A stretch of 64,000 nucleotides of DNA from positions 8,034-72,033 of the forward strand of contig JAZLHE010000098.1 of assembly GCA_045616665.1 (NCBI GenBank), given 5' to 3'. Origin of the DNA: Bacteroidales bacterium. GTDB lineage: Bacteria; Bacteroidota; Bacteroidia; Bacteroidales; WCHB1-69. The translations under genes and the position numbers were made by a program. The notes beneath the pieces are model-generated. The model was not told the origin of the DNA. It was given only the letters and a program-made list of their open reading frames with translations, and made no database searches. Shown piece after piece: positions 13,703 to 41,113 of the stretch (position 1 is its first letter; the number at the start of each line of letters is the position of its first letter).

Positions 13703-14725
13703 TTACTTTTCAAGAATAATGTAAACGGGAAAATGGTCGCTATAGCCGCCTTGATACACTCCGGCCGCGTAGGTTCTTAACGGATATCCGATATAGGAAC
13801 CGGATTGAGACAGCATAAAATTCTTTCTAAACACCTTTGTTCCCACATATTTATAGGAATTTGGCCTTACCGGATAAATTAAATTAGAAGAAATGACAAT
13901 TTGGTCAATGACATCCCACACGTCGCGATAGGCGTATGTCCCCACGCCGTCTTGATACATTTTCCACATTGGATTAAACAAATCTCCTCGTTGAACATCT
14001 TTGATTTTAACCTTGGGTTGCAAATAATCCTTAAGGCTTTTTGCAGTTGGACTGTCGTTAAAGTCTCCCATAAAGACGATATTCGCATTGATGTTTTTCG
14101 CGAGAATTGAATCAGCGATATGGCGGGCCAATTGTGCGGCCGCAATTCGTTTGGGCATACTTCGTTTCTCGCCCCCCAATTTGGAAGGCCAGTGCATCAC
14201 AATACAATGAACGGTGTCCGTATGGTCAATTACGCCAGTCATTAAAAACTGATCACGCGTACGAAAGCTGGTATCCTCTGTTACCAATCTAAATGCTTTT
14301 GTGCTAAGCACTTGAAATCTATCTTGATCATACAGGAATGCGACATCCACGCCACGACGATCGGGTGAATCGTGATGAACCACGCCCAAATTCAACGGTT
14401 TAAGTTTTTCGGTGGCCACCAAGTCGTCTAAAACACGTTTGTTTTCGACTTCAGAAACGCCTAAAACCACTACTCCACCCTTTTCTTCGCCAATCAACGC
14501 GATGACGGAAGCCATATTGTTCAACTTGCGCTGATACCTTTCCGGTGTCCATTGATAGTCGCCCGTAGGCAAAAACTGTTCGTCATTGGTAGCGGGATCA
14601 TTTTCCGTATCAAAAAGATTTTCAAGGTTGTAAAAACCGATGATCGCAGATTTTCCGCTTTGTGCAAATACCGTCGTTCCTGCCCATATCAGAAACACAA
14701 GTAAGGTCAAAGTCTTAGTCCTCAT
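13703..14725 (-). CDS. Secreted endonuclease/exonuclease/phosphatase (EEP) family protein
   Basis: Signal peptide MRTKTLTLLVFLIWAGTTVFAQ. EEP blocks IGFYNLENLFD, LGVSEVEN, VVHHDSPDRRGVDVAFLY, MGDFND and GYSDHFPV. Confidence 0.85.
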   Translation of the reverse strand: MRTKTLTLLVFLIWAGTTVFAQSGKSAIIGFYNLENLFDTENDPATNDEQFLPTGDYQWTPERYQRKLNNMASVIALIGEEKGGVVVLGVSEVENKRVLDDLVATEKLKPLNLGVVHHDSPDRRGVDVAFLYDQDRFQVLSTKAFRLVTEDTSFRTRDQFLMTGVIDHTDTVHCIVMHWPSKLGGEKRSMPKRIAAAQLARHIADSILAKNINANIVFMGDFNDSPTAKSLKDYLQPKVKIKDVQRGDLFNPMWKMYQDGVGTYAYRDVWDVIDQIVISSNLIYPVRPNSYKYVGTKVFRKNFMLSQSGSYIGYPLRTYAAGVYQGGYSDHFPVYIILEK

Positions 14726-17413: not shown

Positions 17414-18661
17414 ATGAAATATACAAAAATAACTCTCGGATTATTATTATCAATCGTGATGATTTGTACTTCCGCCTGCAAAAAAGAATTGGATGTGGCT
17501 CCTTGCGCCACTTTTGACGGAAAAGCCACCCATACCATTGCGGAATTATTACAATTTCATCCGTTAACCGAAGGATTCACCTACGACACGATACCTCAAG
17601 GCGTTATTATCCAGGGTGTCGTCATCTCAAGCGACAAAGAAGGCAATTGCTACAAATACATTACCATTGACGACGGAACCGCCGGCGTGCAAATCAAAAT
17701 CAACAGCAGTTCGTTGTACACCAATTATCCATTGGGACAACGTGTTTTCGTAAAATGCGACGGATTGGTACTCGGAGACTACGGAATGCTTCACCAACTG
17801 GGATGGTGGGAAAATGGAAGTATGCAAGGCATCAACACTAACCGTATCTCCAAATACATATTCAGAGACGGTCTTCCAGGTGCTACCCCAGCCCCTATCG
17901 AACTCAATTCCGCCAACGATATCGAAGACAATATGTATAATCGTTTAGTCAAGATAAAGGATTGCCATTTCAAATATCCGGGCAGTGTCTTTGCCGAAAC
18001 GACATCCAGTGGCACTTCCAACGACATCGTCTTTGCCGATGGCAGCGAAATCGTTCTTTACACCAGCGCTTACGCCAAATTTGCCAGCCAACTCACTCCG
18101 GAAGGCAAATTTGATATGATAGCCATTCTGTCTCGTTTTAGAACTACCAAGCAGTTGGTTCTTCGTTCATTGGACGATTTGCATGTAGAGCCCGTCGTTC
18201 AAGAAAAAACCATTTATAATATGAACTTGTCTCAAAATCCACTTCTTAACGGTTGGAGTAATATCACTACCGCTGGAAGCAGCTGGGAATATTTGCCCTC
18301 AGCTTCGGCCTGTTTGATTCAAGGGATGCAAGGCAATAATGACAGTTGGTTGATTTCTCCAGTTGTCAATGCTGCTTCATACGACAATGTCACTTTATCA
18401 CTCACCCACCGCTCTATCAATGGCACCAATGGCCGCAAACTCTACTACTCGACCTCTTACAATGGAGAGTCCATTAATCCTTCAGATTGGACAGAAATTG
18501 ACTTAGGCACAATCGGACAGGGATACACCACTTTTACCCAAAATATTCCAACAGAAATTTTCACTCAACCCAATTTGAGATTTGCATTAAGATATACAGA
18601 TAACACCAATTCCACTTGGCTGATATCTTCTTTTAAATTAGTTTCTTACGTATTAGAATAA
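17414..18661 (+). CDS. Surface lipoprotein with an OB-like (DUF5689-like) N-terminal module and a choice-of-anchor-J-like C-terminal domain
   Basis: Lipoprotein signal (...MICTSAC). Block VVISSDKEGNCYKYITIDDGTAGVQIKI. C-terminal NGWSN...DSWLISPVV motif. Paralogous to the next gene. The family names are recollections and were not checked by HMM. Confidence 0.65.
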   Translation: MKYTKITLGLLLSIVMICTSACKKELDVAPCATFDGKATHTIAELLQFHPLTEGFTYDTIPQGVIIQGVVISSDKEGNCYKYITIDDGTAGVQIKINSSSLYTNYPLGQRVFVKCDGLVLGDYGMLHQLGWWENGSMQGINTNRISKYIFRDGLPGATPAPIELNSANDIEDNMYNRLVKIKDCHFKYPGSVFAETTSSGTSNDIVFADGSEIVLYTSAYAKFASQLTPEGKFDMIAILSRFRTTKQLVLRSLDDLHVEPVVQEKTIYNMNLSQNPLLNGWSNITTAGSSWEYLPSASACLIQGMQGNNDSWLISPVVNAASYDNVTLSLTHRSINGTNGRKLYYSTSYNGESINPSDWTEIDLGTIGQGYTTFTQNIPTEIFTQPNLRFALRYTDNTNSTWLISSFKLVSYVLE

Positions 18662-18671
18662 AAATTGCATT

Positions 18672-19961
18672 ATGAAAAAAATATTCAATCTGATATTTGC
18701 ATTATCATTGATGGCCGTTATCATTCCGTCTTGTCAAAAATGGACGGCTCCCAAATTTGAAGCCCCGGTTTATACGGGTCCCAAGGCCAATAAAACCATT
18801 GCCGACATCAAAGCACGCCATCTTGTGCTTGATCAAAACATCCAGGATTCCATTTGTCGCGCCTCATCCGAGAAATTTATCGTCAAGGCAGTGGTGGTCA
18901 GTTCCGATGAAGGTGGAAACTGTTACAAATATCTTACCGTTCAAGACGCAACGGGTGGCATCGAAATCGCCATCGACAAAAACAGCCTTTTCAACGACTA
19001 CCCTGTAGGACAAATCGTATATATAAACTGTCAGGGCTTAGTGGTTGGCGACTACAACAATAAATATCAAATCGGATGGATTTATGAAAACAGCATTGGA
19101 CGTATCAACGCTATGATGTTGGGTAATTATTTGTCCAAAGATGGACTTCCCGACATGAAAAATATTGAAGAACTTTCGCCTTGCGGTGGAATTTGCGAGA
19201 TTAATTCCAATGTTGATCTTGATCCGGTAAAAGTCAATTGCCTTTGTCGTATTTCAAAAGCCAAATTCAAAGCAGAATGTCACGGTTTGCAATTGGCCAC
19301 CAACGACCTCACTTGTGACCGCGAACTCGAAAATTACAACATCACCGTGAGGACTTCCAACTATGCGAAATTCAGAAATTTTGTTATTGATGCCACCAAG
19401 GAATACGATTTGACGGGTATTTTGACCATTTACAACAACAATTACCAATTCACCATTCGCACCATTGACGACATCAAAATCGCTCCGAAAGAAGAAGAAA
19501 TACTGGTGAAACAACTGACTTTTGATGCCAGTTCTTTCACCACCGGAGGATGGTCTCAAAACAATGCAAACGGCTGGCAGTTTTCAGACAATTATATGTA
19601 CCACATGTTTGTCAATGCCACTTGTGACGACTGGATGGTTTCTCCCGAAATCACCATTCATGATAATGACAGCTATCTTAAAATCGAGCATCATATCAAC
19701 GAAGTTACCGACCCTGATTTTTACCAGGTTTATTATTCCACCGCTTCATTTGACGGAACCATTCACGAAAGCGACTGGACACCTTATAACTTAACAGAAT
19801 ATCCATCCTCCTCCTACTTTGGATACAGCAATGAATTGACACCTGTTCCGCAAGGCGTTCCTTTTAGAATTGCGATCAGATACAATAAACACACCAGCTC
19901 AATAGCATCACACAGATGGTATATTAAATCATTAAACTTTTATAAGAAAGAATGGAGATAA
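18672..19961 (+). CDS. Paralogous surface lipoprotein (OB-like module plus choice-of-anchor-J-like domain)
   Basis: Lipoprotein signal (...AVIIPSC). Block [28 protein letters not shown] is nearly identical to that of its neighbour. C-terminal GGWSQ...DDWMVSPEI motif. Confidence 0.65.
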
Positions 19962-29492: not shown

Positions 29493-31355
29493 ATGTCAAC
29501 AGGTAAAATTCACGTACAGACGGAAAATATCTTTCCGGTAATTAAAAAGTTCTTGTATTCCGATCAGGAAATATTTCTTAGAGAGTTGATTTCCAATGCT
29601 GTAGATGCTTCACAAAAGATCAAGACACTGGTAAGTCTCGGCAAGGCGAGCAGCGAATTGGGCGATTTGACCATTGACGTAAAAGTGGATAAAGATGCCA
29701 AAACGCTGAGCGTCATTGATCACGGAATCGGAATGAGTGGTGAAGAAGTAAAAAAATACATCAATCAGATTGCCTTTTCCAGTGCGGAAGAATTTGTGGA
29801 GAAATACAAGGGAACCGATGCTGCCAACATTATCGGGCACTTTGGACTTGGCTTTTATTCCGCATTTATGGTGTCGTCACTGGTGGAAATCAAAACGAAA
29901 TCTTATCAGGACGAAATGCCTGCGGTACATTGGACTTGCGACGGTTCCACAGAATATTCGATGAAGGAGATCGACAAGAGCGAACGCGGAACCGAAATCA
30001 TCCTGCACATTGCTGAAGACTCGGAAGAATTTTTGGATGAAAGCCGCATTGTGAGCTTATTGCATAAATATTGCAGTTTTCTACCGATTCCAATCCGTTG
30101 CGGCAACGAAAAAGTCTGGGAAAAACCCGAAGGGAAAGATAAGGAGGAAGAAGTCGAAAAACCTCGTATCATCAACAATACCAATCCTTTATGGAAACAG
30201 CAGCCATCTGCGCTCACAGATGAAGACTACAAGAAATTCTATCGCGAACTTTATCCGATGGTCTTTGAAGAACCCCTGTTCCAAATTCACCTCAACGTGG
30301 ATTATCCTTTCAACTTGACAGGCGTTCTCTATTTCCCGAAGGTAAAAAACCAATTGGAATTACAAAAAAACAAAGTACAACTTTATTGTAATCAAGTATT
30401 TATAACCGACCAGTTGGAAGGCATCATTCCTGAATTCATGATGTTGCTGCACGGTGTCATCGACTCGCCCGACATCCCGTTGAATGTTTCGCGCTCGTAC
30501 CTGCAGTCGGACAGCAATGTCAAGAAGATTTCCAACCACATCACCAAGAAAGTGGCGGAAAAGTTGGAGGAAATGTTCAAAAACGACCGTGCCGATTTTG
30601 AGAAGAAATGGGATGACATCAAAATCTTTATTGAATACGGATCTTTGGCAGACGAGAAATTTTTCGAGAAAGCCCAAAAATTCTTCTTGCTGAAGAATAC
30701 CGACGGTAAATATTTCACTTTAGATGAATACAAGACTCAGATTGAGACCTTGCAAAAGGACAAAAACGACACTTTGGTCTATCTTTATGCCGCCGATGTC
30801 AACACGCAACACGTTTATATTGAAAATGCAAAGGCCAAAGGTTATGACGTCTTGTTGATGGACGGCTTTTTGGACACCCACTTCATCAATATGCTGGAAC
30901 AGAAAATCGAAAAGAGCAAATTCACGCGTGTTGATGCCGATATTATCGACAAACTGATTGAAAAAGACGAGATTCTTCCTTCAAAACTGTCTGACGATGA
31001 AAAAGAAAAACTGAAAGGTCTTTTCGAAACCAACGTAGAAAAAGAAAAATTCACGGTTCAAATCGAGAATCTCAGCGAAGAAGACCTCCCCGTGATGATT
31101 ACGCAAAACGAATTTATGAGACGTTATCAGGATATGGGCAAGATTTCCGGACAGCCAAGCTTTGGCAATTTCGAGCACTACAACCTCATTGTCAACGGAA
31201 ATCACAGTCTGGCACAACGTATTTTGTCGGAAACTGACGAAGAAAAGAAAAACACACTGACACAACAACTTATCGACTTGGCACTGCTTTCGCAAAACAT
31301 TTTGACAGGCAAAAAACTGAGCGATTTTGTCAAACGAAGCGTTGATTTGTTATAG
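29493..31355 (+). CDS. htpG: Molecular chaperone HtpG (Hsp90)
   Basis: 620 aa with the GHKL N-domain (YSDQEIFLRELISNAVDA, DHGIGM, GHFGLGFYSAFMV) and Hsp90 middle and C-terminal domains. Confidence 0.95.
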   Translation: MSTGKIHVQTENIFPVIKKFLYSDQEIFLRELISNAVDASQKIKTLVSLGKASSELGDLTIDVKVDKDAKTLSVIDHGIGMSGEEVKKYINQIAFSSAEEFVEKYKGTDAANIIGHFGLGFYSAFMVSSLVEIKTKSYQDEMPAVHWTCDGSTEYSMKEIDKSERGTEIILHIAEDSEEFLDESRIVSLLHKYCSFLPIPIRCGNEKVWEKPEGKDKEEEVEKPRIINNTNPLWKQQPSALTDEDYKKFYRELYPMVFEEPLFQIHLNVDYPFNLTGVLYFPKVKNQLELQKNKVQLYCNQVFITDQLEGIIPEFMMLLHGVIDSPDIPLNVSRSYLQSDSNVKKISNHITKKVAEKLEEMFKNDRADFEKKWDDIKIFIEYGSLADEKFFEKAQKFFLLKNTDGKYFTLDEYKTQIETLQKDKNDTLVYLYAADVNTQHVYIENAKAKGYDVLLMDGFLDTHFINMLEQKIEKSKFTRVDADIIDKLIEKDEILPSKLSDDEKEKLKGLFETNVEKEKFTVQIENLSEEDLPVMITQNEFMRRYQDMGKISGQPSFGNFEHYNLIVNGNHSLAQRILSETDEEKKNTLTQQLIDLALLSQNILTGKKLSDFVKRSVDLL

Positions 31356-31357
31356 TT

Positions 31358-32045
31358 TTAACCGTTTTCCATAATTTTTTTATCCCCATTCCGATTTTCA
31401 GAATGGGGAATTTTTTCGGAATATAGTGAAGGGCTTATAATTACTCGCCAACTTCCATCTACCGGATTCTTCTCAATATAGTTTTTTGCCACAAGCTGAT
31501 TGATAAGTTTCTGTATCGCGGTAATACTTATGCCAAGTTCTTCATGCAACTCTTTTTGCGTCACAGAAGGCATAGTACGCATCAGTCTCAGCATCTTGGC
31601 ATAATTTGGAGAGCGGAAACGTACCATCTCGCCATCATACCACCAATAATTCTCTTTGCGTTCTGTAACAAAAAGATAGTCTCCCCATACTTCATCAGCG
31701 ACAAGACGATTGAAGTACTTCAAGAAGTTTTCTATTTCCTTGATGTTTGCATGTGCACCATCGCCTGGTGCAAAACCCACCACTTGATCTGTTGCATGAA
31801 GAGCTTCCAAATACTCATTTTTCTTGCGACTTCTCACAACAATCATCGGATAGTTATGACGAGACAGGATATAATTAACCATCAATCGTGCGATACGCCC
31901 GTTGCCATCTTCAAAAGGAATGGTTATTGCTTTCCAAACTTTGATAGTGCAAAATTACAAAATTCATTTGAATTATCACCAAAAATTCATCAAAAAGGTT
32001 ATTGCACACCAACCTTTTTGCTACGATTCGAATAATAACATCCAT
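31358..32045 (-). pseudogene. Disrupted, N-terminally truncated Fic/DOC family gene
   Basis: The intact ORF 31358..31885 holds only the post-motif part (RLMVNYILSRHNYPMIVV...) and a C-terminal winged-helix (TQKELHEELGISITAIQKLINQLVAKNYI). Just upstream, PFEDGNGRIARL lies in the same frame, but the catalytic His codon (..LHYQSLESNNH) is in another frame. A single extra T near 31919..31920 separates them, and removing it restores HPFEDGNGRIAR. Only about 43 codons precede the motif, whereas a Fic fold needs roughly 100. Confidence 0.6.
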
Positions 32046-32295
32046 TTATCCAATGGCAATCTAAATGTAAACCATCACTTCGACATCATCTATTACCATA
32101 GGAATTGTCGCCGCCGCACCAGTAATGTGTCAACTCCCACTCACCCTTACAATTGCACGGCACGTCGCCGTCCTGATGTCTCCGACGTATGGAGAAAACA
32201 AAGGAATCTTTACAAGATTAAGCGGAAATTAGTATGAAGTATAAGAAAAAAACATCAAGCATAATTTTAAATAATAAAGATATCAATGTTTTTAG

Positions 32296-32303
32296 TATAT
32301 TTG
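32296..32303 (+). promoter_or_regulatory. -7 promoter box TATATTTG for the GAPDH/dikinase-like operon
   Basis: Exact TAnnTTTG match 32 nt upstream of the ATG at 32335. It is the only such box I see before the gene set 32335..41113. Confidence 0.45.
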
Positions 32304-32334
32304 CAGCAAAATTCAAATTACTACAGGACTACAA

Positions 32335-33336
32335 ATGACGACTAAAATTGGGATTAACGGATTTGGGCGAATAGGAAAGATGGTTTTTCGATTGGCCGAA
32401 GGCGACCAAGACATTGAGATCACCCACATTAACGACAAAATGGACACGCGGCTGATGGCGCATCTGTTGAAATACGACAGCATTCACGGGCGTTTTAACG
32501 CAGAAGTTGATTTTGATCAGGAACATTTAATTGTGAATGGACGAAAAATACTGGTTACCAACGAGATGCAACCAGGAGACATTCCTTGGGGCAAAACCGG
32601 CGTAGAAGTTGTAATAGACTCGTCCGGGCGTTTCAAAACGGCTGCCCTACTCACTCCGCACCTTCGCGACAGCGTAAAAAGGGTAATTCTAAGTTGTCCT
32701 CCTGGAGATTCGAGCATTGAACGCACCATCGTTATGGGCGTTAATCACAGCACGATACAGGAAACGGACCGCATTATTTCCAACGCTTCCTGCACGACCA
32801 ACTGCATCGCCGTGGCCATCAAGGTGGTAAACGACGAATTCGGAATGGTTCGCGGTTTTATGAACACGGTTCATCCTACGACCAACAACCAGAACTTGCA
32901 GGACGGATTTCATTCCGACTACCGGCGGGCACGTTCTGCGATGGCCAACATCATCCCCACCACCTCGAGTGCCGTAAGAACCACTCAATTGGTCATTCCT
33001 GAAATGGCCAACATCTTCGATGGTTTTGCCACACGCGTGCCGGTTGCAGACTGTTCCTTTGTGGAACTGACTGCCGAATTGCACCGGCAGGTCACCACGC
33101 GCGACATCAAAGACGCTTTTCAAAGGCACGCCAACGGTGATTTAAAACCCTATTTGGAATACACGGAAGATCCTATCGTCAGCAGCGACGTTACCAACAA
33201 TCCGCATTCTGCCATTTTTGACGCGATGGCCACTAAGGTCATCGGCGGCAACTTCATCCAGTTGTTAGTCTGGTACGACAACGAATACGGTTATTCATCA
33301 CGCATCATCGACCTAATTAAATATTGCAACAAATGA
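32335..33336 (+). CDS. gap: Glyceraldehyde-3-phosphate dehydrogenase family protein (type I size, divergent)
   Basis: 333 aa with GINGFGRIGK, catalytic SNASCTTNC, TVHPTTNNQ and WYDNEYGYS. The canonical IIP(T/S)STGAAKAV block is replaced by IIPTTSSAVRTT. The TGA overlaps the next ATG (ATGA, 33333..33336). Confidence 0.85.
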   Translation: MTTKIGINGFGRIGKMVFRLAEGDQDIEITHINDKMDTRLMAHLLKYDSIHGRFNAEVDFDQEHLIVNGRKILVTNEMQPGDIPWGKTGVEVVIDSSGRFKTAALLTPHLRDSVKRVILSCPPGDSSIERTIVMGVNHSTIQETDRIISNASCTTNCIAVAIKVVNDEFGMVRGFMNTVHPTTNNQNLQDGFHSDYRRARSAMANIIPTTSSAVRTTQLVIPEMANIFDGFATRVPVADCSFVELTAELHRQVTTRDIKDAFQRHANGDLKPYLEYTEDPIVSSDVTNNPHSAIFDAMATKVIGGNFIQLLVWYDNEYGYSSRIIDLIKYCNK

Positions 33337-36300
33337 ATGAGATGATTAAATCACAAGCGCTGGAAGCCAATCTTTCACGCACACAGAATATTCCCTACAC
33401 CATTCCTGATCATCACCAATGGTTTATGTCGCTTTCCGACAATTATTGGGGAATCCATAAGAGAATCACGGATTTCTTCAACGAATACCACCATCCTTTT
33501 TCAAACAGGAAAGAGATTGTAAATCAATTGGTTAGCGTTACGATTTCTGATTTCTGGCTATATAAGGAATTGGCGGAAGAAGACAAGGAAAAAGCCCTGC
33601 AAATGATCTTTGACATTTACAAGGAACTATTGCAGAAACAGTTGCCCGATGATCTGTGCAAACAACTGATTTACACATTTTTGGATTTCTTCAACAACAG
33701 TTACGAAACCATAGAAAGCACCCATTTCGTCAATGATTTCATACGAATTCTGATCGACAATTTTGATGGGAACCGCTTCAGTTTCCTGTATAATGTCGGA
33801 CATTTCAAGAAAAAACTTCGGAAAGCCGTTGAAAACGAGCAATGTAAAGACGAAGCTTTCAGTTTTATGAAAGATTTGCTCAAGTCCAACGTGCAATTTT
33901 GGGAAGAAAGCACCCAAATTGAAGACTGGTACGAAAAAAACAAGGAAAAAATGTCCAAGGATTATAGTGAAGCCCTAAAACCGTTGGGGAAAGCACTATA
34001 CGCCGACTATTATTCCAACATTGACGAGGCGAAAGATTTTGACGAATTGAGCCAATATGCGTTTACCTTTGCCGACATCATCGAGGCCTACAAGAAAGAA
34101 ATCGACATTTTTGAAAAAGCCAGTGAACAATTCTGCTATATTTTCTACCTGCTTCATTTACCGGGAGTTAAGTATCACAGAGAGTATTTGCTGATTGAGT
34201 TGAACAAGGTCATCAAGAAAATCAGCAACGAATTGGATGAAGAACAGTGCATCGCGTCAATGAACGAATTGTTCGACCAATTCAATGATTTTAAAGAGAA
34301 TCACATCAATCTGATTTTAGATTCCATTCTTACATTAGGAAAGGAAATCATTAATACAAAGAACAATACGCTCATTCATTATCTTGAAAAGAAGATTATT
34401 GATTTCGGCTTTGTCACTCCGGGCATTACCTATATGACCAATGATTGGGAATTGAAGGTGAATCCTTGTCACGTCAAGAACATTCGTGTATGGCTTGAAT
34501 TGATCGAACACGATCCTGAAACGATGCAACGCTTGTTGGCGGCACTGATCATCAACTTGCGGGTGGGCGGCATTTTCATTTTCGATACCGATTTTTTCCA
34601 AAAAGACATCACGAAGCTGCTGAATGCCAAAATTTCTCCTATCTACAAGCAGACCAAGCAATTGGCAAGAATATTCCCAGTCTATTTTAACGAAATCGGG
34701 GCTGAAGGCGTATTGCGAGACGTTTCTACCAAAATTGACGAACTTTCGCACCGCAACGACAAACTGATTCATTTTCTCCGAAAACAAATTCATACGGAAG
34801 GAAACAACTCGCATATTCAAATCACTTTGGATGTTATTCATTTCTGGAAAGATTTGAACAAGAGTCATTTGGAAAAAATCCTTCCACAAAATGTTTACTG
34901 TCTGGTTGATCCTGACGGGATTTGGGTGAAAGGCGTTCACGAAGTCTTGATTAAATTATTAGAGACCAACGATTTAACTGTAGAACAACTGATTGAAAAG
35001 AATAAGGAAGAAGTTGAGGAACTGGTCAAGAACATTCATCACGACAACGAAACAGATGTCAAGCGTGTATGCCTGATTATTGAACTTTATCAGTTGCTGA
35101 AGGAAAAATACATTTTCGACTCCACCGACATCATCAACATTCTCAAGAAATACTATTTTGTTGATAAAGAAGACATTGACAAATTAGAGCTTTTGTTGGA
35201 GAAAGACGAACCCGTGGCCACCCTGAAGCACATTTTCTCCTTGATGAAGAAACTGAACGACATCATTTTTGACGAAAAGAAAAGCGAAGGATGGGAAAAT
35301 GTATTCTACAAGAGACACATTGCCTTTGGCATTCCATCGATGTACGGCTATTACAAAGAAGTCAAATTTGATGCCTTAGGATTGACATTTCGTTTGGAAC
35401 GTATCGCCTCCGTATTGGTGAAGCGTATCATTATGGGAATCAACACGGAATTTTTCACGCTGAAAGTGTTCAAGGAAATCTGTGATATGATCAAATTGCT
35501 TAGGGACGGTTTGAGTTTGGACGGCATTCACGACCAGAGTTTCGACTCCAATCTCAAGATGCTTGAATACAGCTTGACTTCAGGATGCTTCACTATTGAT
35601 CAGTATATCAACATTTTCCAATTTATGGAAGGAAGCATTAAGGAAATCATCAACAACTACTTCATTCGTCCGTACGATATGTTGTTGAAGATTATCATTC
35701 CGCAGCAAAATCCAGAAATTAACGATAAATATCTGATTAAAAAGACAATAGCACAGAAATCTGAAATTTTCTATCGCGAACTTCTTTCTTCAGCGTTTAT
35801 CATTCAGCAATTGGACAATTTTATGGGCGAGATTCTGAACAATCTTCGCAAGCAGGTCAACGTCCTGACATCGGAAGAAGCCCAGAACATTATGACTTAC
35901 GACCAGAAGATGGCCATTAGTCCGTTATATCACGAAACGCCGACGATAGACAATCAGGTGTTCATTGGTTCGAAGGCCTATTATCTGAAGAAATTATACT
36001 TGAATGACTATCCCGTACCGCCCGGATTCATCATCACCACTGAAATTTTTCGCAGGATCAAATCCATTCTCAAGGTGGATTCCATCAACAACGAACTGGA
36101 CCAGATGATCAAGTCTCATTTATCTAAGATTGAGAAGATTACGGGTTGCAAATATGGAGATCCGCACAATCCATTGCTGTTGAGTGTCCGGTCCGGTTCG
36201 GCCATTTCGATGCCAGGAGCAATGAGCACGTTTTTGAATGTTGGTTTGAATGACGAGATAACCGAAGAATTGAGCAAGCAGGACAATTACGCGTGGACTT

Positions 36301-37430
36301 CTTGGGATTGTTATCGTCGTTTATTGCAGACTTGGGGGATGTCATACGGCTTGGAACGTGATGATTTCGACAAAATCATCTTGGATTACAAGAAAAAGTA
36401 CAATGTGGCGCAAAAAATCGGCTTCACGCCGGCCAATATGCGCGAGATTGCCTTTGCATACAAGCAATTACTCATTGACAACGGCATCCATTTTGAAGAA
36501 GATCCGTTTATGCAGTTGAAAATTGCCGTCATTTCCGTTTTTGACTCCTGGAATTCGCCCCGTGCCAAGGTATATCGTGAGCACATGCACATTGCCAACG
36601 AATGGGGAACGGCCGTCATCGTTCAAAAAATGGTATTCGGCAACATTCACCGTGAATCCGGTTCAGGAGTATTGTTTACCCGCGACATCAAGAGCAACCG
36701 TTCCGCCATCAACCTCAATGGCGACTTTTCGTTCCTCAGCCAAGGAGAAGACATTGTGGGCGGCTTGGTCAACACGCTGCCCATCAGCGAGGCACAACGC
36801 GAACGCAGTTACCAGAAAGCACCATTCTCGTTGGAAAGCCATTATCCTGACATTTTCAACAAATTGAAAGAAGTTGCCAAGAGGATGATTGAAAAAGACG
36901 GATTCATCCATCAGGAAATTGAATTTACCTTTGAAACCGCAGACGCTGACGGCTTGTTCATTTTGCAAACTCGAAATATGGCCGTGGTGAAGCAAAGCGG
37001 TGTAGAAGTTTTTGCCACCGCACGTGAAGATATGCAGAAAGTCGGTTCCGGCATCGGCATCGGCAAGGGCGTGCTCAACGGCATTATTGTATTTGACAAG
37101 GAAGACATCGAAAAGATTAAAAACAATCCGCAAAATGACAAACAACTGGTATTGGTACGACCCGATACCGTTCCTGACGACATTGAGTTGATTTTTGAAT
37201 GTGACGGTTTGTTAACCGCACGTGGAGGTGCCACCTCTCACGCTGCTGTAACCGCTTCGTCGTTAGGAAAGATTTGCGTGGTCAACTGCGTTGACTTGAT
37301 GGTGAACGACCAGGAGAAGACCTGTTCTATCAATGGCACACAATTCAAATTATTTGACGAAATTGCCATTGACGGTCAAAACGGCATTATCTACAAAGGG
37401 AACTACCCCATTATGGTGGATGAGGCGTAA
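33333..37430 (+). CDS. 1365-aa protein: unknown N-terminal region plus PPDK-type ATP-grasp and phosphohistidine (swivel) domains, with no PEP/pyruvate domain
   Basis: The track ORF starts at TTG 33324; I use ATG 33333. From about nt 35955 it reads [92 protein letters not shown]...LFILQTRN, then [25 protein letters not shown] (His codon 37239..37241). The ORF ends about 60 aa later. Confidence 0.8.
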   Translation: [1365 protein letters not shown]

Positions 37431-37484
37431 TTTTTCGAAATAAAAAATAAATCAATTAATTATTCACATAAAAAAACACAAATT

Positions 37485-38732
37485 ATGATTAGTATCAACG
37501 AAAAGAAAATCCTGGGAATCAACGGTTCAGGTAGAATTGGAAAATTAACCATTTGGCATCACCTGCTTTCTCGCAAAGTTGACGGTTTGGTTGTTAACGT
37601 AGGTCGTGAAGTCGGCAAGCATTTGGAAGATTACATCCAACAGCTCTGTACGGATTCCACATACGGTAATTTAAGTTACTTTCTCTACGGACGCGCAGGC
37701 AAACAAGTTGATGTTAAAATCATTGATCACGATCAAAATATGATTGAAGTTGATGGTTTTCCCATCAAATTATTAATCACTGAACGTAATCCACGCAATA
37801 TCAATTGGAAGGCTGAAGGCGTGCGTGTAGTCGTTGACTGTACGGGCAAGTTTTTGGATCCGTCACTTCCCGACAACGAAGGCAAAGGCAGTATTTTAGG
37901 GCACTTGACCGCGGGTGCGGAACACGTCATTGCCAGTGCGCCTTTCAAAATCAAGCAGAGCGATTTCAATGCTGAAAACACCCCTACTTTGATTTACGGC
38001 ATCAACCATCACTGCTTTGACCCACAGAAACATCACGTCATTTCCGCCGCCAGCTGTACCACCACGGGGTTGGCACACATGATCAAACCTTTATTGGATG
38101 ACAAGGAAACCTGCAATGTCTTAACCGCCTCATTATCAACCGTTCACGCAGCAACCAACACTCAAAATGTATTGGATGGCGTTCCCAAAGAAGGTGCGAC
38201 CGACTTAAGAAAGAACCGTTCGGTGCTCAACAACATCATTTTGTCCACCACCGGCGCAGCCAAGACTTTGGAAAAAGTCATTCCAGAAACACAGCATTTT
38301 GGATTTATGGCTGATTCCATTCGAATCCCCACGCCGACCGTGTCATTGATTGCCCTGAACATCACCTTCAATTCCAGATTAAATGAAAATGGTGTTCCTT
38401 ACATCAGTGGCGACTATATTCGCAACATTTACAAGAAAGTGTCAGAAGGCGAACAAAAGAGCCTGGTGAAATTCTCTATGCAGCAGAATGTTTCTATGGA
38501 CCTTCTGGGTATGCCGGCAGCCATTGTCATTGAAGGGAAGGAAATCCACACGAGAACTGGATTTATCAAAGTTCCTACGGAAATCTTGGCAGGAATGGGA
38601 ATTCACGATATTCCAGAAATCAACATTCCGGTTACCCACGCCAAGATTATGGGTTGGTATGACAATGAATTTGGCAGCTATGTTTCCTGTTTAGGACGCC
38701 TAACTGAACACGTAATCTCAAGTATTGACTAA
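37485..38732 (+). CDS. Long-form (415-aa) glyceraldehyde-3-phosphate dehydrogenase family protein
   Basis: GINGSGRIGK, SAASCTTTGLAH (Cys retained, SCTTT instead of SCTTN), STVHAATNTQ, STTGAAKTLEKVIPE, IRIPTPTVS and WYDNEFGSY, with about 80 extra residues relative to classical GAPDH. Confidence 0.8.
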   Translation: MISINEKKILGINGSGRIGKLTIWHHLLSRKVDGLVVNVGREVGKHLEDYIQQLCTDSTYGNLSYFLYGRAGKQVDVKIIDHDQNMIEVDGFPIKLLITERNPRNINWKAEGVRVVVDCTGKFLDPSLPDNEGKGSILGHLTAGAEHVIASAPFKIKQSDFNAENTPTLIYGINHHCFDPQKHHVISAASCTTTGLAHMIKPLLDDKETCNVLTASLSTVHAATNTQNVLDGVPKEGATDLRKNRSVLNNIILSTTGAAKTLEKVIPETQHFGFMADSIRIPTPTVSLIALNITFNSRLNENGVPYISGDYIRNIYKKVSEGEQKSLVKFSMQQNVSMDLLGMPAAIVIEGKEIHTRTGFIKVPTEILAGMGIHDIPEINIPVTHAKIMGWYDNEFGSYVSCLGRLTEHVISSID

Positions 38733-38734
38733 TA

Positions 38735-41113
38735 ATGACGCTAAAAGATCTGCAGATTGGCAAAAGCGGCAAGGTTACCCAAATTGGCAACAACGGCATC
38801 CATCGTCAGCATTTTTTAGATATGGGAATTATTCCCAATGCCGTTGTTACTATGGTAAAGCATGCCCCTTTAGGAGATCCTGTAGAAATTCTGATTCACG
38901 GCTATTCTCTGACTTTACGCTTGGCAGACGCGGAACAAATTGAAATTGAGCCCTATCAGGTTAGAGAGGATAATAGTTCAAATGGACAAGCCGAAGAATC
39001 AACCTTCCAGCAACCCGAAGCCCGTGTGGCCGAAACGTTACACGAACACAACAGCCACCCGGGCTTTGGTGAAGCAGGAAAATACCACGACAAGGAAAAA
39101 GAACACGCTCTTCCCAAAGACACTTTGCTGACTTTTGCATTGATTGGCCAGCAAAATTGCGGGAAAACCACGCTTTTCAACCAACTTACCGGTTCGAAGC
39201 AGCACGTGGGCAACTTTCCAGGCGTAACCGTTGACCGCAAGGATGGCGTCATTCGGGGTTATCCGAACACGCAAGTCACGGATTTGCCAGGACTATACTC
39301 TCTTTCGCCCTACACAACGGAAGAAGAAGTATCCAAGCAGTTTATAATCAATGAAAAGCCCAAAGGCATCATTAATATTGTGGATGCTTCCAACATTGAG
39401 CGCAATCTCTATCTCACAATGCAACTTATGGAATTGAATATTCCAATTGTATTGGCATTGAATATGATGGATGAAGTCCGTAAAAACGGTGGAACGATCC
39501 GTGTCAACGAGATGGAGAAGTTTTTAGGCATTCCCGTTGTTCCCATTTCGGCAGCGAATAACGAAGGCATTGAAGAATTGGTGGAACACGCCGTTCACAT
39601 TGCCCAGTATCAAGAACTTCCCGCCATCCAAGATTTTTGTGACAAAGAAAATCACGGGGGTGCCGTACACCGCTGTCTTCACGGCATTATGCACTTAGTG
39701 GAAGATCACGCGGAAAAAGCAGGATTACCCATACGATTTGTAGCCAGCAAATTGGTTGAAGGAGATCAAGACATTTTGGAAAGATTGCAACTGAGCCAGA
39801 ATGAGAAAGAAACCCTGGAGCATATCATTCTTCAAATGGAAGAAGAGCGACAACTTGACCGTGCGGCTGCCATAGCCGATATGCGCTACGGCTTCATTCA
39901 AAAATTAAGCCAAAAAGCTGTTGTCAAACCGAAAGAAAACGCTGAATATATCAGAAGTAAGAAGATTGACCAGGTAATTACGGGAAAATGGACTGCCATT
40001 CCGATTTTTGTCATCACCTTATGCTCAATTATTTGGCTTTCCATTGATGTTCTTGGCCGACCACTTCAAGAATGGCTGGGGCAAGGCATCGACTGGCTTG
40101 CGGAAATTTGTGGACAAGGATTAGCCAGATTGGGATTCAGCACCACCCTACAATCGCTGGTTGTTGACGGAATTTTCGGAGGTGTGGGCTGCGTCGTCAG
40201 TTTCGTTCCCATCATCATTTTGTTGTTCTTCTTCCTGAGTATGTTGGAAGACAGCGGATATATGGCAAGAGTGGCCTTTGTCACCGACAACCTTTTGCGA
40301 AAATTCGGTTTATCCGGACGAAGCATTGTACCGTTGCTCATTGGATTTGGATGCTCTGTACCAGCCATAATGGCCGCGCGTACCCTACCCTCAACACGAG
40401 ACCGTCGCTTGACAATCCTACTGACACCCTTTATGAGTTGTAGCGCGAAAATTCCTATTTACGCATTCTTCACCGCCTACTTTTTTCCACGTCACGGAGG
40501 ATTAGTCCTTGTCGGATTGTATTTATTAGGAATTTTGGTCGGCGCGATGGTGGCCATTGCCAAGAAAATCATCACCAAACAGACCTCCGCGACACCTTTT
40601 GTAATGGAACTGCCCAATTACAGATTACCCCGACTCAAAAATGTGATGCATTTACTTTGGGATAAAATTAGAGATTTCCTTGAAAAAGCATTTACAATTA
40701 TATTTATTGCCTCCATTGTCATCTGGTTTTTGCAATCCTTTGATTTTCGTTTTCACCTTGTGGAAAATGGCGAAAACAGTATGTTGGCCTGGATTGCGGG
40801 ATTGATATCCCCAATTTTTCAACCAATGGGTTTAGGCGACTGGCGAATTGTAACATCGTTGTTTAGTGGCTTGATAGCCAAGGAAAGCGTGGTTGCCACC
40901 ATTGACGTTTTGGGAGGTGTAAACATTTTCACCCCACTTACCGCAATACCGATGTTGGTATTTTGCCTGCTTTACACTCCTTGTGTTGCAGCCGTTACCG
41001 CCGTAAAGAGAGAATTAGGATGGAAATGGGCAGTATTTGTCATATTATTTCAATGTGCCCTTGCCTGGGTCTTGGCTTGGGGAGCATACCTTATCGCTGG
41101 AACAATCTTATAA
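38735..41113 (+). CDS. feoB: Ferrous iron transporter, fused FeoA-FeoB
   Basis: 792 aa. N-terminal FeoA SH3-like part (LKDLQIGKSGKVTQI...), a linker, the G domain (ALIGQQNCGKTTLFNQLTG, DLPGLYS, NMMD), then the polytopic gate domains. The ATG lies 2 nt after the preceding stop. Confidence 0.93.
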   Translation: MTLKDLQIGKSGKVTQIGNNGIHRQHFLDMGIIPNAVVTMVKHAPLGDPVEILIHGYSLTLRLADAEQIEIEPYQVREDNSSNGQAEESTFQQPEARVAETLHEHNSHPGFGEAGKYHDKEKEHALPKDTLLTFALIGQQNCGKTTLFNQLTGSKQHVGNFPGVTVDRKDGVIRGYPNTQVTDLPGLYSLSPYTTEEEVSKQFIINEKPKGIINIVDASNIERNLYLTMQLMELNIPIVLALNMMDEVRKNGGTIRVNEMEKFLGIPVVPISAANNEGIEELVEHAVHIAQYQELPAIQDFCDKENHGGAVHRCLHGIMHLVEDHAEKAGLPIRFVASKLVEGDQDILERLQLSQNEKETLEHIILQMEEERQLDRAAAIADMRYGFIQKLSQKAVVKPKENAEYIRSKKIDQVITGKWTAIPIFVITLCSIIWLSIDVLGRPLQEWLGQGIDWLAEICGQGLARLGFSTTLQSLVVDGIFGGVGCVVSFVPIIILLFFFLSMLEDSGYMARVAFVTDNLLRKFGLSGRSIVPLLIGFGCSVPAIMAARTLPSTRDRRLTILLTPFMSCSAKIPIYAFFTAYFFPRHGGLVLVGLYLLGILVGAMVAIAKKIITKQTSATPFVMELPNYRLPRLKNVMHLLWDKIRDFLEKAFTIIFIASIVIWFLQSFDFRFHLVENGENSMLAWIAGLISPIFQPMGLGDWRIVTSLFSGLIAKESVVATIDVLGGVNIFTPLTAIPMLVFCLLYTPCVAAVTAVKRELGWKWAVFVILFQCALAWVLAWGAYLIAGTIL

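Follow-up and report, generated by a model that had tools for sequence, protein, structure and literature searches.

The dikinases that work through a swivelling phosphohistidine carry a phosphoryl group from an ATP-grasp site to a third, substrate-specific domain. In pyruvate phosphate dikinase (PPDK), this third domain is a TIM barrel (PF02896) for phosphoenolpyruvate (PEP) and pyruvate, whereas in rifampin phosphotransferase, the glucan and phosphoglucan water dikinases, phenylphosphate synthase and PigC/RedH the ATP-grasp and phosphohistidine pair serves a third domain not directed at PEP. Enzymes of the rifampin phosphotransferase and water dikinase type use water, not inorganic phosphate (Pi), as the second acceptor, and the His domain of rifampin phosphotransferase is C-terminal, on a single tether. 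Phosphate is exchanged between a phosphohistidine and an acyl-phosphate, coupled to an ATP-grasp site, in succinyl-CoA synthetase and ATP-citrate lyase. In many bacterial operons, the gene for glyceraldehyde-3-phosphate dehydrogenase (GAPDH), gap, is followed by pgk, the gene for phosphoglycerate kinase (PGK). We analysed a window of 64,000 nucleotides (nt), this being the whole stretch of DNA considered, from a Bacteroidales bacterium (assembly GCA_045616665.1, contig JAZLHE010000098.1, positions 8,034 to 72,033), in which a gene for a giant PPDK-derived protein lies between two GAPDH paralogues, here called gapS and gapL (Table 1). The giant protein joins a complete PPDK-type ATP-grasp and phosphohistidine carrier to a new, strongly constrained module, and the operon context points to an undescribed phosphate-transfer step near central sugar metabolism. 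The initial annotation, made from the sequence alone, knew of no system with this architecture, and our searches of the full-text literature found no description of one.

The last ~490 amino acids (aa) of the giant protein had been matched by eye with PPDK, and this assignment was borne out. They align with residues 17-509 of the C. symbiosum enzyme, covering 17-339 and 389-509, and in the alignment with structure 1KBL the equivalents of K22, R92, the SMPG loop, R135, E323, Q335, R337 and GG.TSHAAV are all kept. Pfam searches placed PF01326 (PPDK_N, E 3e-31) and PF00391 (mobile PEP-utilizers, E 2e-15) in the C-terminal third and did not find PF02896 (PEP-utilizers_C) anywhere in the protein, in keeping with the predicted ‘two-thirds dikinase’. 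By every measure, the nearest relatives of this core are true PPDKs: the NCBIfam models gave 356 bits for PPDK, 82 for PEP synthase and 36 for rifampin phosphotransferase, phmmer against the PDB gave E 3e-72 for PPDK vs 1e-14 for PEP synthase, and Foldseek gave E 2e-29, 1e-6 and 6e-5 for the three families, respectively. The match to the PPDK model TIGR01828 spans model positions 13-337, and its 356 bits fall well short of the equivalog cut-off of 843. Because this score is too low and the PF02896 feature is missing, the giant protein is not a PPDK.

An AlphaFold2 (AF2) model of residues 166-1365 (1,200 residues; predicted local distance difference test, pLDDT, 84) superposed on 1KBL at 2.9 Å over 544 columns, and on 1KBL, 1DIK and 2DIK at 2.9-3.4 Å over ~540, as opposed to 13-14 Å on 2R82 and maize PPDK. 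The 1KBL-type structures are described as holding the His domain in the nucleotide-proximal state, and the His domain of the giant protein is modelled in that state. The open reading frame (ORF) terminates seven residues beyond the His domain, where the PEP/pyruvate barrel of a PPDK would start; thus, the machinery for the half-reaction with ATP and Pi or pyrophosphate (PPi) and for the carrier is complete, while the third PPDK domain is absent. Judged by its sequence, the giant protein should be unable to interconvert pyruvate and PEP. Its sources call it ‘hypothetical’ or ‘PEP/pyruvate-binding domain-containing protein’, and JGI and some NCBI records have ‘pyruvate, orthophosphate dikinase’, ‘pyruvate phosphate dikinase’ or ‘ppdk2’. 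Since some pipelines call it PPDK, metabolic reconstructions that count PPDK in metagenome-assembled genomes (MAGs), for instance those of Cloacimonadota, may credit PEP/pyruvate interconversion wrongly.

The region ahead of the core had been called unrecognisable, and it remained without a relative in Pfam, NCBIfam, PDB sequence and Foldseek searches. Three overlapping N-terminal pieces gave only noise in Pfam at E<=10, phmmer against the PDB returned nothing below E 0.09 and NCBIfam assigned no recognised family to the N-terminal two-thirds of the protein. An AF2 model of the region, based on 33 sequences (pLDDT 82, predicted template modelling score 0.70), is nearly all helix with one β-hairpin; Foldseek against the PDB found nothing under E 1e-3 for it, and karyopherin/HEAT solenoids appeared at template modelling (TM) scores of 0.1-0.2. 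A PEP/pyruvate or PEPC-like barrel hidden in the N-terminus was considered as a candidate and is excluded by Pfam, by phmmer against the PDB, by the all-α AF2 model and by Foldseek. A PEP/pyruvate domain supplied by a neighbouring gene was rejected as well, as no PEP-utilizers_C family recurs among 668 neighbour ORFs from ~85 loci. The initial annotation had expected neither, and in this it was right.

About 150 positions of the N-terminal module are invariant among the 33 sequences, which come from several phyla. They are rich in D, E, K, R, H, N and Q, and they cluster in four motifs (residues 413-420, 452-459, 480-494 and 660-679), the cores of which persist in family members of only 24-35% identity. 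Two of the motifs stay below pLDDT 50 in both AF2 models, as is common for lids and for stretches that become ordered on a ligand or partner. A profile search yielded 632 clusters (50% identity) that have the module; all full-length carriers measure 1,335-1,540 aa and have dikinase domains, the shorter matches look like fragments and no stand-alone or otherwise-fused module was found in this exhaustive search. All six distant carriers tested have PPDK_N and five also have PEP-utilizers, the sixth (P0172) apparently being frameshifted in its C-terminal third. From its sequence distribution, the module appears to exist only to serve the dikinase core. Its constraint, the retention of its motifs and its obligate fusion fit a site of catalysis or binding at which the His domain is served. 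That this site binds a substrate is what we infer; the solenoid-like all-α fold could equally be a protein-binding scaffold. Two members of 1,455-1,540 aa, P0172 and P0180 (the latter at L087 1166-5788), carry an extra N-terminal hemerythrin HHE domain. Domains of this kind are typical sensors of O2, redox state or iron, which suggests that some members of the family are regulated by such signals.

These data bear on the simplest alternative, that of an ordinary or decayed PPDK whose PEP/pyruvate domain has been lost or is provided in trans, with GAPDH genes next to it by chance. The labels ‘pyruvate, orthophosphate dikinase’ and ‘ppdk2’ speak for it. The low TIGR01828 score, the intact ORFs of uniform great length across the 632 clusters and the lack of a recurrent PEP-utilizers_C neighbour speak against it, as does a mean column identity of 66% across phyla in the family alignment, from which strong purifying selection on the family is evident. 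A chance adjacency is further opposed by the link with gapL described below, which extends over about seven phylum-level labels and holds in both directions of search. Conservation and synteny contradict a degenerate or split PPDK as well as a chance neighbourhood, and we regard this explanation as very improbable.

Direct reading of the sequence returned the giant ORF and its 1,365-aa product, and an ORF listing of the window returned gapS and gapL; every coordinate given in the initial annotation was verified, as were its quoted peptide blocks and the position of the His codon. The ATG of the giant gene (33333..33335) overlaps the TGA of gapS (33334..33336) in an ATGA, its predicted start agrees with the family consensus MxxxIxSKALE, and 54 nt separate its stop from the start of gapL. 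To see how far this layout extends, we turned to a one-genome-per-species collection, where at least 504 loci of the giant family are present. The synteny counts that follow rest on the best 80 of these loci, with an evaluable subset that differs for each gene. The best 80 are all from MAGs, and the family comes almost wholly from MAGs of anaerobes. Those 80 are labelled as Bacteroidales/Bacteroidota, Ignavibacteria, Cloacimonadota, Aminicenantes, Calditrichota, Clostridia/Bacillota and Geobacteraceae/‘Deltaproteobacteria’, along with a few Alphaproteobacteria that are probably mis-binned.

The gapL gene lies directly 3' of the giant gene in 54 out of 65 evaluable loci, with a median spacer of 35 nt (55 loci). 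This adjacency spans Bacteroidota, Ignavibacteria, Cloacimonadota, Aminicenantes, Clostridia/Bacillota, Geobacteraceae and Acidobacteria. The reverse look-up agreed, the giant gene being immediately 5' of gapL in all three cases picked from a search with gapL (a gut Bacteroidales, a 3.3-Mb assembly and an Acidobacteria MAG). By comparison, gapS is directly 5' of the giant gene in 35 out of 69 loci, mainly in a clade of >=50% identity (Bacteroidota, Ignavibacteria and Cloacimonadota), and is absent from the loci of Clostridia and Geobacteraceae. Where the junction could be assessed, the gapS stop and the giant start overlap in 23 of 37 loci (median -4 nt). Both GAPDH genes flank the giant gene in 24 of 58 loci, gapL alone in 23, gapS alone in six and neither in five. 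Hence, the co-occurrence named as a check in the initial annotation stands for the giant gene and gapL, in near and distant genomes, but not for the full triad, since gapS is found in about half of the loci and more distant members of the family lack a neighbouring GAPDH gene. What is conserved as a unit is the pair of giant gene and gapL, and gapS is a lineage-restricted addition.

No family other than GAPDH occurred in more than six loci when the 668 neighbour ORFs from ~85 loci were clustered all against all. The minor clusters were PAS kinase, MatE, HydF/radical SAM, DUF3810, flavodiiron protein, Crp/Fnr and GGDEF. In loci that lack gapL, the giant gene adjoins lepA, dnaN, an amidohydrolase gene and the like. 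The distant members P0161, P0180 and P0264 have no GAPDH neighbour in the available DNA, the contig of P0161 stopping at the 3' end of the gene, and P0144 is followed at a distance of 1 kb by a GAPDH-like gene of 453 aa.

Several neighbourhoods deserve mention in their own right. A 1,425-aa member (L090/L091 1-12680) directly follows lptB-rpoN-hpf-ptsN(EIIA-Ntr)-rapZ-EIIA(Man)-acetyltransferase and precedes, by 1 kb, a 453-aa GAPDH-like gene; the slot after rpoN-hpf-ptsN-rapZ-EIIA(Man) is the position of the HPr/Enzyme I genes (ptsH/ptsI) in some bacteria. In two Cloacimonadota loci, a gene for a PTS_EIIA_2-fused Na+/H+ exchanger is immediately 5' of gapS-giant-gapL (L003 4779-6536 and L004 883-2640). 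Flavodiiron genes (ODP plus flavodoxin) are found no farther than ~6 kb from the giant gene in L020, L051 (11477-12700; here right after gapL), L065 and L069. In four Geobacteraceae loci, L052, L060, L067 and L071 (22-711), a Crp/Fnr-type regulator lies ahead of the giant gene. Both kinds of neighbour are related to O2, NO or redox state but sporadic. Another four to five loci share HydF and radical-SAM hydrogenase maturases. In L060, from a Desulfobacterota-type MAG, a c-di-GMP-I riboswitch (13779-13855, minus strand; 41 bits, above the gathering score) is located ~0.8 kb beyond a HAMP-GGDEF gene, ~2.4 kb downstream of gapL.

Both flanking genes encode proteins with PF00044 (Gp_dh_N) and PF02800 (Gp_dh_C), as had been predicted. 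They had also been described as two divergent GAPDHs, which is true of the product of gapL but not of that of gapS, a near-canonical enzyme overall. GapS is ~50% identical to the G. stearothermophilus GAPDH (1GD1) and narrowly exceeds the TIGR01534 cut-off (375.3 vs 367.2 bits). GapL reaches only 287.6 bits against the same cut-off and shares 27% identity with GapS. The loops of GapS read NIIPTTSSAVR, HPTTNNQ and RVPVADCSF, and a signature of NIIPTT[ST]SA[VI][KR], HPTTNNQ and RVP..DCSF is present in 37 out of 37 operonic orthologues, where canonical GAPDHs have NIIPSSTGAAKAV, H[ST].T..Q and RVPT.NVS. The phosphate loop at Thr208-Gly209 is, therefore, altered from the canonical S-S/T-T-G-A-A-K, a non-operonic GAPDH in L023 reading SSTGAA; SCTTN and VH, with the catalytic Cys149 and His176, are retained. 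Members of the GapL family measure 413-419 aa and have three family-specific insertions. Their 57 orthologues conserve SCTT, VHAATNTQ, LRKNR, S[ST]TGAAK and RIPT, that is, Cys149, His176, Thr179, Arg195, Thr208-Gly209 and Arg231 in standard numbering. Thus, Cys149, His176, Thr179, Arg195 and Arg231 are present in both paralogues, and GapL additionally has the STGAAK Pi loop. Because both retain these active-site residues, both are expected to be active, GapL as a phosphorylating enzyme; acting on a phosphorylated aldehyde, they should make or use up an acyl-phosphate. Canonical-type GAPDH genes occur <=2 kb from the giant gene in L023 and L070, which indicates that the operonic gapS and gapL are additional, dedicated paralogues. 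No GAPDH-giant fusion was found among the best 120 matches of either family. A preference of GapL for NADP through loss of Asp32 was considered and abandoned, as NVGRE and its surroundings do not align unambiguously and the Glu may stand in for the Asp.

As the most economical reading for this clade, we tentatively propose that His1303 shuttles phosphate between the AMP/PPi-ATP pair and the pair 3-phosphoglycerate (3-PG)/1,3-bisphosphoglycerate (1,3-BPG), bypassing PGK. The ATP-grasp domain would handle ATP and AMP and probably Pi and PPi, the latter because the core is closer to PPDK than to PEP synthase. His1303, on its swivelling, C-terminally tethered domain, would ferry the phosphoryl group to a third site formed by the invariant charged loops of the N-terminal module (DTD, GAEG, RKQ.H.E.N and the KRH-containing 660s motif), which would replace the lost barrel. 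The overall reaction would be 3-PG + ATP + Pi <-> 1,3-BPG + AMP + PPi, so that the giant protein and GapL, with GapS where present, could take the place of the PGK step. It could run in either direction, pulling 3-PG toward triose phosphate at low energy charge or recovering ATP from AMP and PPi in glycolysis. By our own estimate from textbook standard free energies, 3-PG to 1,3-BPG costs about +4 kJ/mol by the dikinase route vs +19 by PGK, and hydrolysis of the PPi would bring the route to about -15 kJ/mol; the reverse reaction would regain ATP from AMP and PPi. Substrate identity, the use of Pi/PPi and direction are inferred here. Besides the energetics, two arguments support the reading. 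The giant gene fills the slot that pgk takes after gap, which favours 1,3-BPG, and the precedent of succinyl-CoA synthetase and ATP-citrate lyase would, by analogy, favour chemistry between a phosphohistidine and 1,3-BPG. The full version of the proposal is a little more speculative still, namely that of a ‘phosphoglycerate, phosphate dikinase’ in which a new all-α catalytic domain and two dedicated GAPDHs make up a PGK-independent, AMP/PPi-linked GAPDH-PGK step in many anaerobes, among them Bacteroidales of rumen and gut, Cloacimonadota, Ignavibacteria, Geobacteraceae and Clostridia.

Several observations weigh against this proposal. No structural analogy links the modelled N-terminal module to 3-PG or 1,3-BPG, its predicted fold being closest to α-solenoids, which usually bind proteins, and 860 residues are very large for a site that accepts a C3 acid. 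The three most conserved loops are predicted to be disordered in monomer models, as expected for folding induced by a partner. The known acceptors of this superfamily are the oxygens of hydroxyls and enolates and a protein His, and a carboxylate is not known among them. Distant members hold the N-terminal motifs without a GAPDH neighbour, so the chemistry is not intrinsically bound to an adjacent GAPDH. Finally, the hemerythrin domain and the context of nitrogen-type phosphotransferase system (PTS-Ntr), Crp/Fnr, PAS-kinase and GGDEF genes in some distant members hint at a regulatory role.

The freedom from GAPDH in distant members would also suit a substrate other than the GAPDH product, and is one reason to consider the same swivelling-His chemistry on another small-molecule or polymer acceptor of hydroxyl type, the product of which feeds or drains the GAPDH reaction. 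Candidates would be the phosphorylation of glyceraldehyde or glycerate, 3-PG to 2,3-bisphosphoglycerate, another aldose phosphate or polyphosphate; 1,3-BPG:polyphosphate phosphotransferase (EC 2.7.4.17) has, as far as we know, no known gene. The architecture and the retained catalytic residues fit such an acceptor equally well, the characterised relatives with a swapped third domain (rifampin phosphotransferase, glucan water dikinase and phenylphosphate synthase) all phosphorylate hydroxyls, and the basic clusters of the module (KRH, RKQ and R687/K678) would suit a polyanionic ligand. Yet the only recurrent neighbours are GAPDHs of the phosphorylating type, and none of the recurring genes around it encodes a kinase, mutase or transporter that would suit another substrate, a PfkB kinase adjoining the triad in a single locus. 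We consider such an acceptor possible, though rather unlikely.

The solenoid-like fold and the disordered loops lend themselves to a different interpretation, in which the protein is an ATP-driven analogue of Enzyme I. The N-terminus would dock a partner, either GapL as a tetramer or a protein of the EIIA/NPr type, and this partner would be phosphorylated or regulated by His1303~P according to energy or redox state. The only folds that the N-terminal model resembles are solenoids of the HEAT/karyopherin type, the ~80 extra residues of GapL in its family-specific insertions could form a docking surface, gapL and the giant gene are paired in both look-up directions, and Enzyme I itself shows that the superfamily can use a protein acceptor. 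The distant member that follows rpoN-hpf-ptsN-rapZ-EIIA(Man), the PTS_EIIA_2-fused antiporter 5' of the Cloacimonadota operon, the hemerythrin fusions and the sporadic Crp/Fnr, PAS-kinase, GGDEF and flavodiiron neighbours would also be at home in such a scheme. However, genes for PTS, EIIA or HPr proteins are not recurrent (PTS_EIIA_2 in three of ~85 loci), and the N-terminal pieces show no similarity to PEP-utilizers_N in Pfam at E<=10. The invariant residues are mostly charged or polar, in short motifs that look like active sites and persist without gapL, and both GAPDHs resemble ordinary active enzymes, not regulatory targets. On these grounds, a protein-directed transfer seems unlikely.

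Regarding transcription, the initial annotation had noted a TAnnTTTG box ahead of the operon. The box, TATATTTG, is indeed there, and it fits a Bacteroidota promoter, but it carries no statistical weight because the pattern is not enriched: the window contains 69 matches, compared to 64 +/- 9 expected by chance, two of them on the plus strand within the giant ORF. Alone, it is not evidence. No sigma-70-like site, terminator or Rfam element was found between the operon genes, an Rfam scan of 31300..38800 at E<=1 gave no riboswitch or leader match and the DNA upstream of the operon in eight other loci gave no Rfam match either. A feoA-feoB fusion gene begins 2 nt past the gapL stop codon, so the transcript probably continues into it in this lineage. 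It is a neighbour only in the closest relatives (L007, L024 and L042) and lies outside the conserved unit, as a lineage-specific link to ferrous iron uptake. A 175-aa ORF (window 31358-31885, minus strand) with weak winged-helix/MarR_2 matches (E 2e-6) is divergent from the operon across an intergenic region of ~450 nt, and is a possible local regulator; the N-terminal part of its product may be the tail of a larger protein. Elsewhere in the window (17414-19961, plus strand), two tandem DUF5689 paralogues of 415 and 429 aa are preceded by an 843-aa ORF and followed by ribBA. PADLOC matched none of the GapS, giant and GapL proteins to a defence model. Neither pgk nor another glycolytic gene was found among the ten window ORFs of 380-460 aa scanned, which is uninformative for 64 kb.

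Table 1. Features of the gapS-giant-gapL locus, in positions of the 64,000-nt window; residue numbers are those of the giant protein.
Feature	Position	Strand	Basis or remark
Candidate Bacteroidota -7 promoter box, TATATTTG	32296..32303	+	32 nt 5' of gapS ATG; weak evidence
gapS, short GAPDH paralogue, 333 aa, type I with altered Pi-site loop	32335..33336	+	PF00044/PF02800, TIGR01534
Giant PPDK-derived dikinase gene, 1,365 aa	33333..37430	+	ATG overlaps gapS stop
N-terminal all-α module, residues 1 to ~860	33333..35912	+	No known relatives in the searches described
Motif GIFIFDTD, residues 413-420	34569..34592	+	G413, D418 invariant; low-confidence loop
Motif FNEIGAEG, residues 452-459	34686..34709	+	G456, A457, G459 invariant; pLDDT <50 in both models
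Motif, residues 480-494	34770..34814	+	F481, R483, K484, Q485, H487 invariant family-wide
Motif in the only β-hairpin of the module, residues 660-672	35310..35348	+	K660, H662, A664, S669, G672 invariant; pLDDT <50 in both models
PPDK-type ATP-grasp nucleotide-binding domain, residues ~861-1217 (~PPDK 1-339)	35913..36983	+	PF01326, TIGR01828, 1KBL alignment
Swivelling phosphohistidine domain, residues ~1235-1358 (~PPDK 389-509)	37035..37406	+	PF00391; alignment to 1KBL, 2FM4
Catalytic His1303 codon CAC in GGATSHAAV	37239..37241	+	S and H invariant in family alignment
Intergenic spacer, 54 nt, A/T-rich	37431..37484	+	Sequence scan; no promoter box or terminator
gapL, long GAPDH paralogue, 415 aa, ~80 extra residues in three insertions	37485..38732	+	PF00044/PF02800
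feoA-feoB fusion gene, 792 aa	38735..41113	+	Pfam FeoA/FeoB_N/Gate/FeoB_C

The giant family is large, strongly conserved and widespread, and in uncultured anaerobes of rumen, gut, digester and sediment it borders on the core of glycolysis. With no Pfam or NCBIfam model for two-thirds of the length of the protein, and no literature on it, it represents a large annotation gap. Under any of the readings weighed here, the N-terminal module is a new domain, one expected to accept phosphate from, or donate it to, a swivelling phosphohistidine. If the GAPDH-coupled proposal is true, the best-studied pathway of biochemistry would gain a new enzyme, and a new way would be known in which anaerobes short of energy deal with the energetics of the GAPDH/PGK step.

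Among described systems, PPDK (EC 2.7.9.1; C. symbiosum 1KBL/1DIK) is the closest, with ATP-grasp and His domains that are ~30% identical, superpose at 2.9 Å and keep the key residues. The giant protein differs from it in ending at about PPDK residue 510, without linker 2 and the TIM barrel, in having an 860-residue all-α module ahead of the ATP-grasp domain and in a His domain that is held by one tether instead of two; its gene, moreover, is in an operon with GAPDH paralogues. It belongs to the His-swivel dikinase superfamily in the broad sense, as it unites an ATP-grasp domain and a phosphohistidine carrier in one polypeptide, with a third site that is presumably N-terminal. In this, it resembles the dikinases with a swapped third domain, but its own third module is unrelated to theirs in fold and lies N-terminal to the ATP-grasp domain. 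For rifampin phosphotransferase, in particular, the Foldseek match (5HV1/5HV3, E 6e-5) is weak, at a TM score of 0.16, the NF041857 score of 36 bits is far from the cut-off of 999 and the domain order is different.

Enzyme I of the PTS (PtsI/PtsP) shares the mobile His domain family PF00391, and its helical N-terminal domain docks a protein acceptor. It takes its phosphate from PEP by way of PF02896, however, and lacks an ATP-grasp domain, whereas neither PEP-utilizers_N (PF05524) nor PEP-utilizers_C was found in the giant protein, including its N-terminal pieces at E<=10. Going by sequence, the giant protein can be taken as neither a rifampin phosphotransferase nor an Enzyme I. Succinyl-CoA synthetase and ATP-citrate lyase are comparable in mechanism only, through a phosphohistidine that moves between acyl-phosphate and ATP-grasp sites; they have no kinship in sequence or fold with the N-terminal module and work with nucleoside di- and triphosphates, not as AMP/PPi dikinases. 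The locus also recalls organisms with dual GAPDHs, such as B. subtilis with GapA and GapB, in having two paralogues, presumably with different roles, in one genome, and it recalls gap-pgk operons, where the gene after gap encodes an enzyme that handles 1,3-BPG. Here, in contrast, both paralogues share one operon and a giant dikinase occupies the pgk slot, GapL is long, has insertions and scores below the TIGR01534 cut-off, and GapS has an altered Pi-site loop. What is familiar in this system is the carrier mechanism; what is new is the third module, the place it takes within the protein and the coupling to GAPDH.

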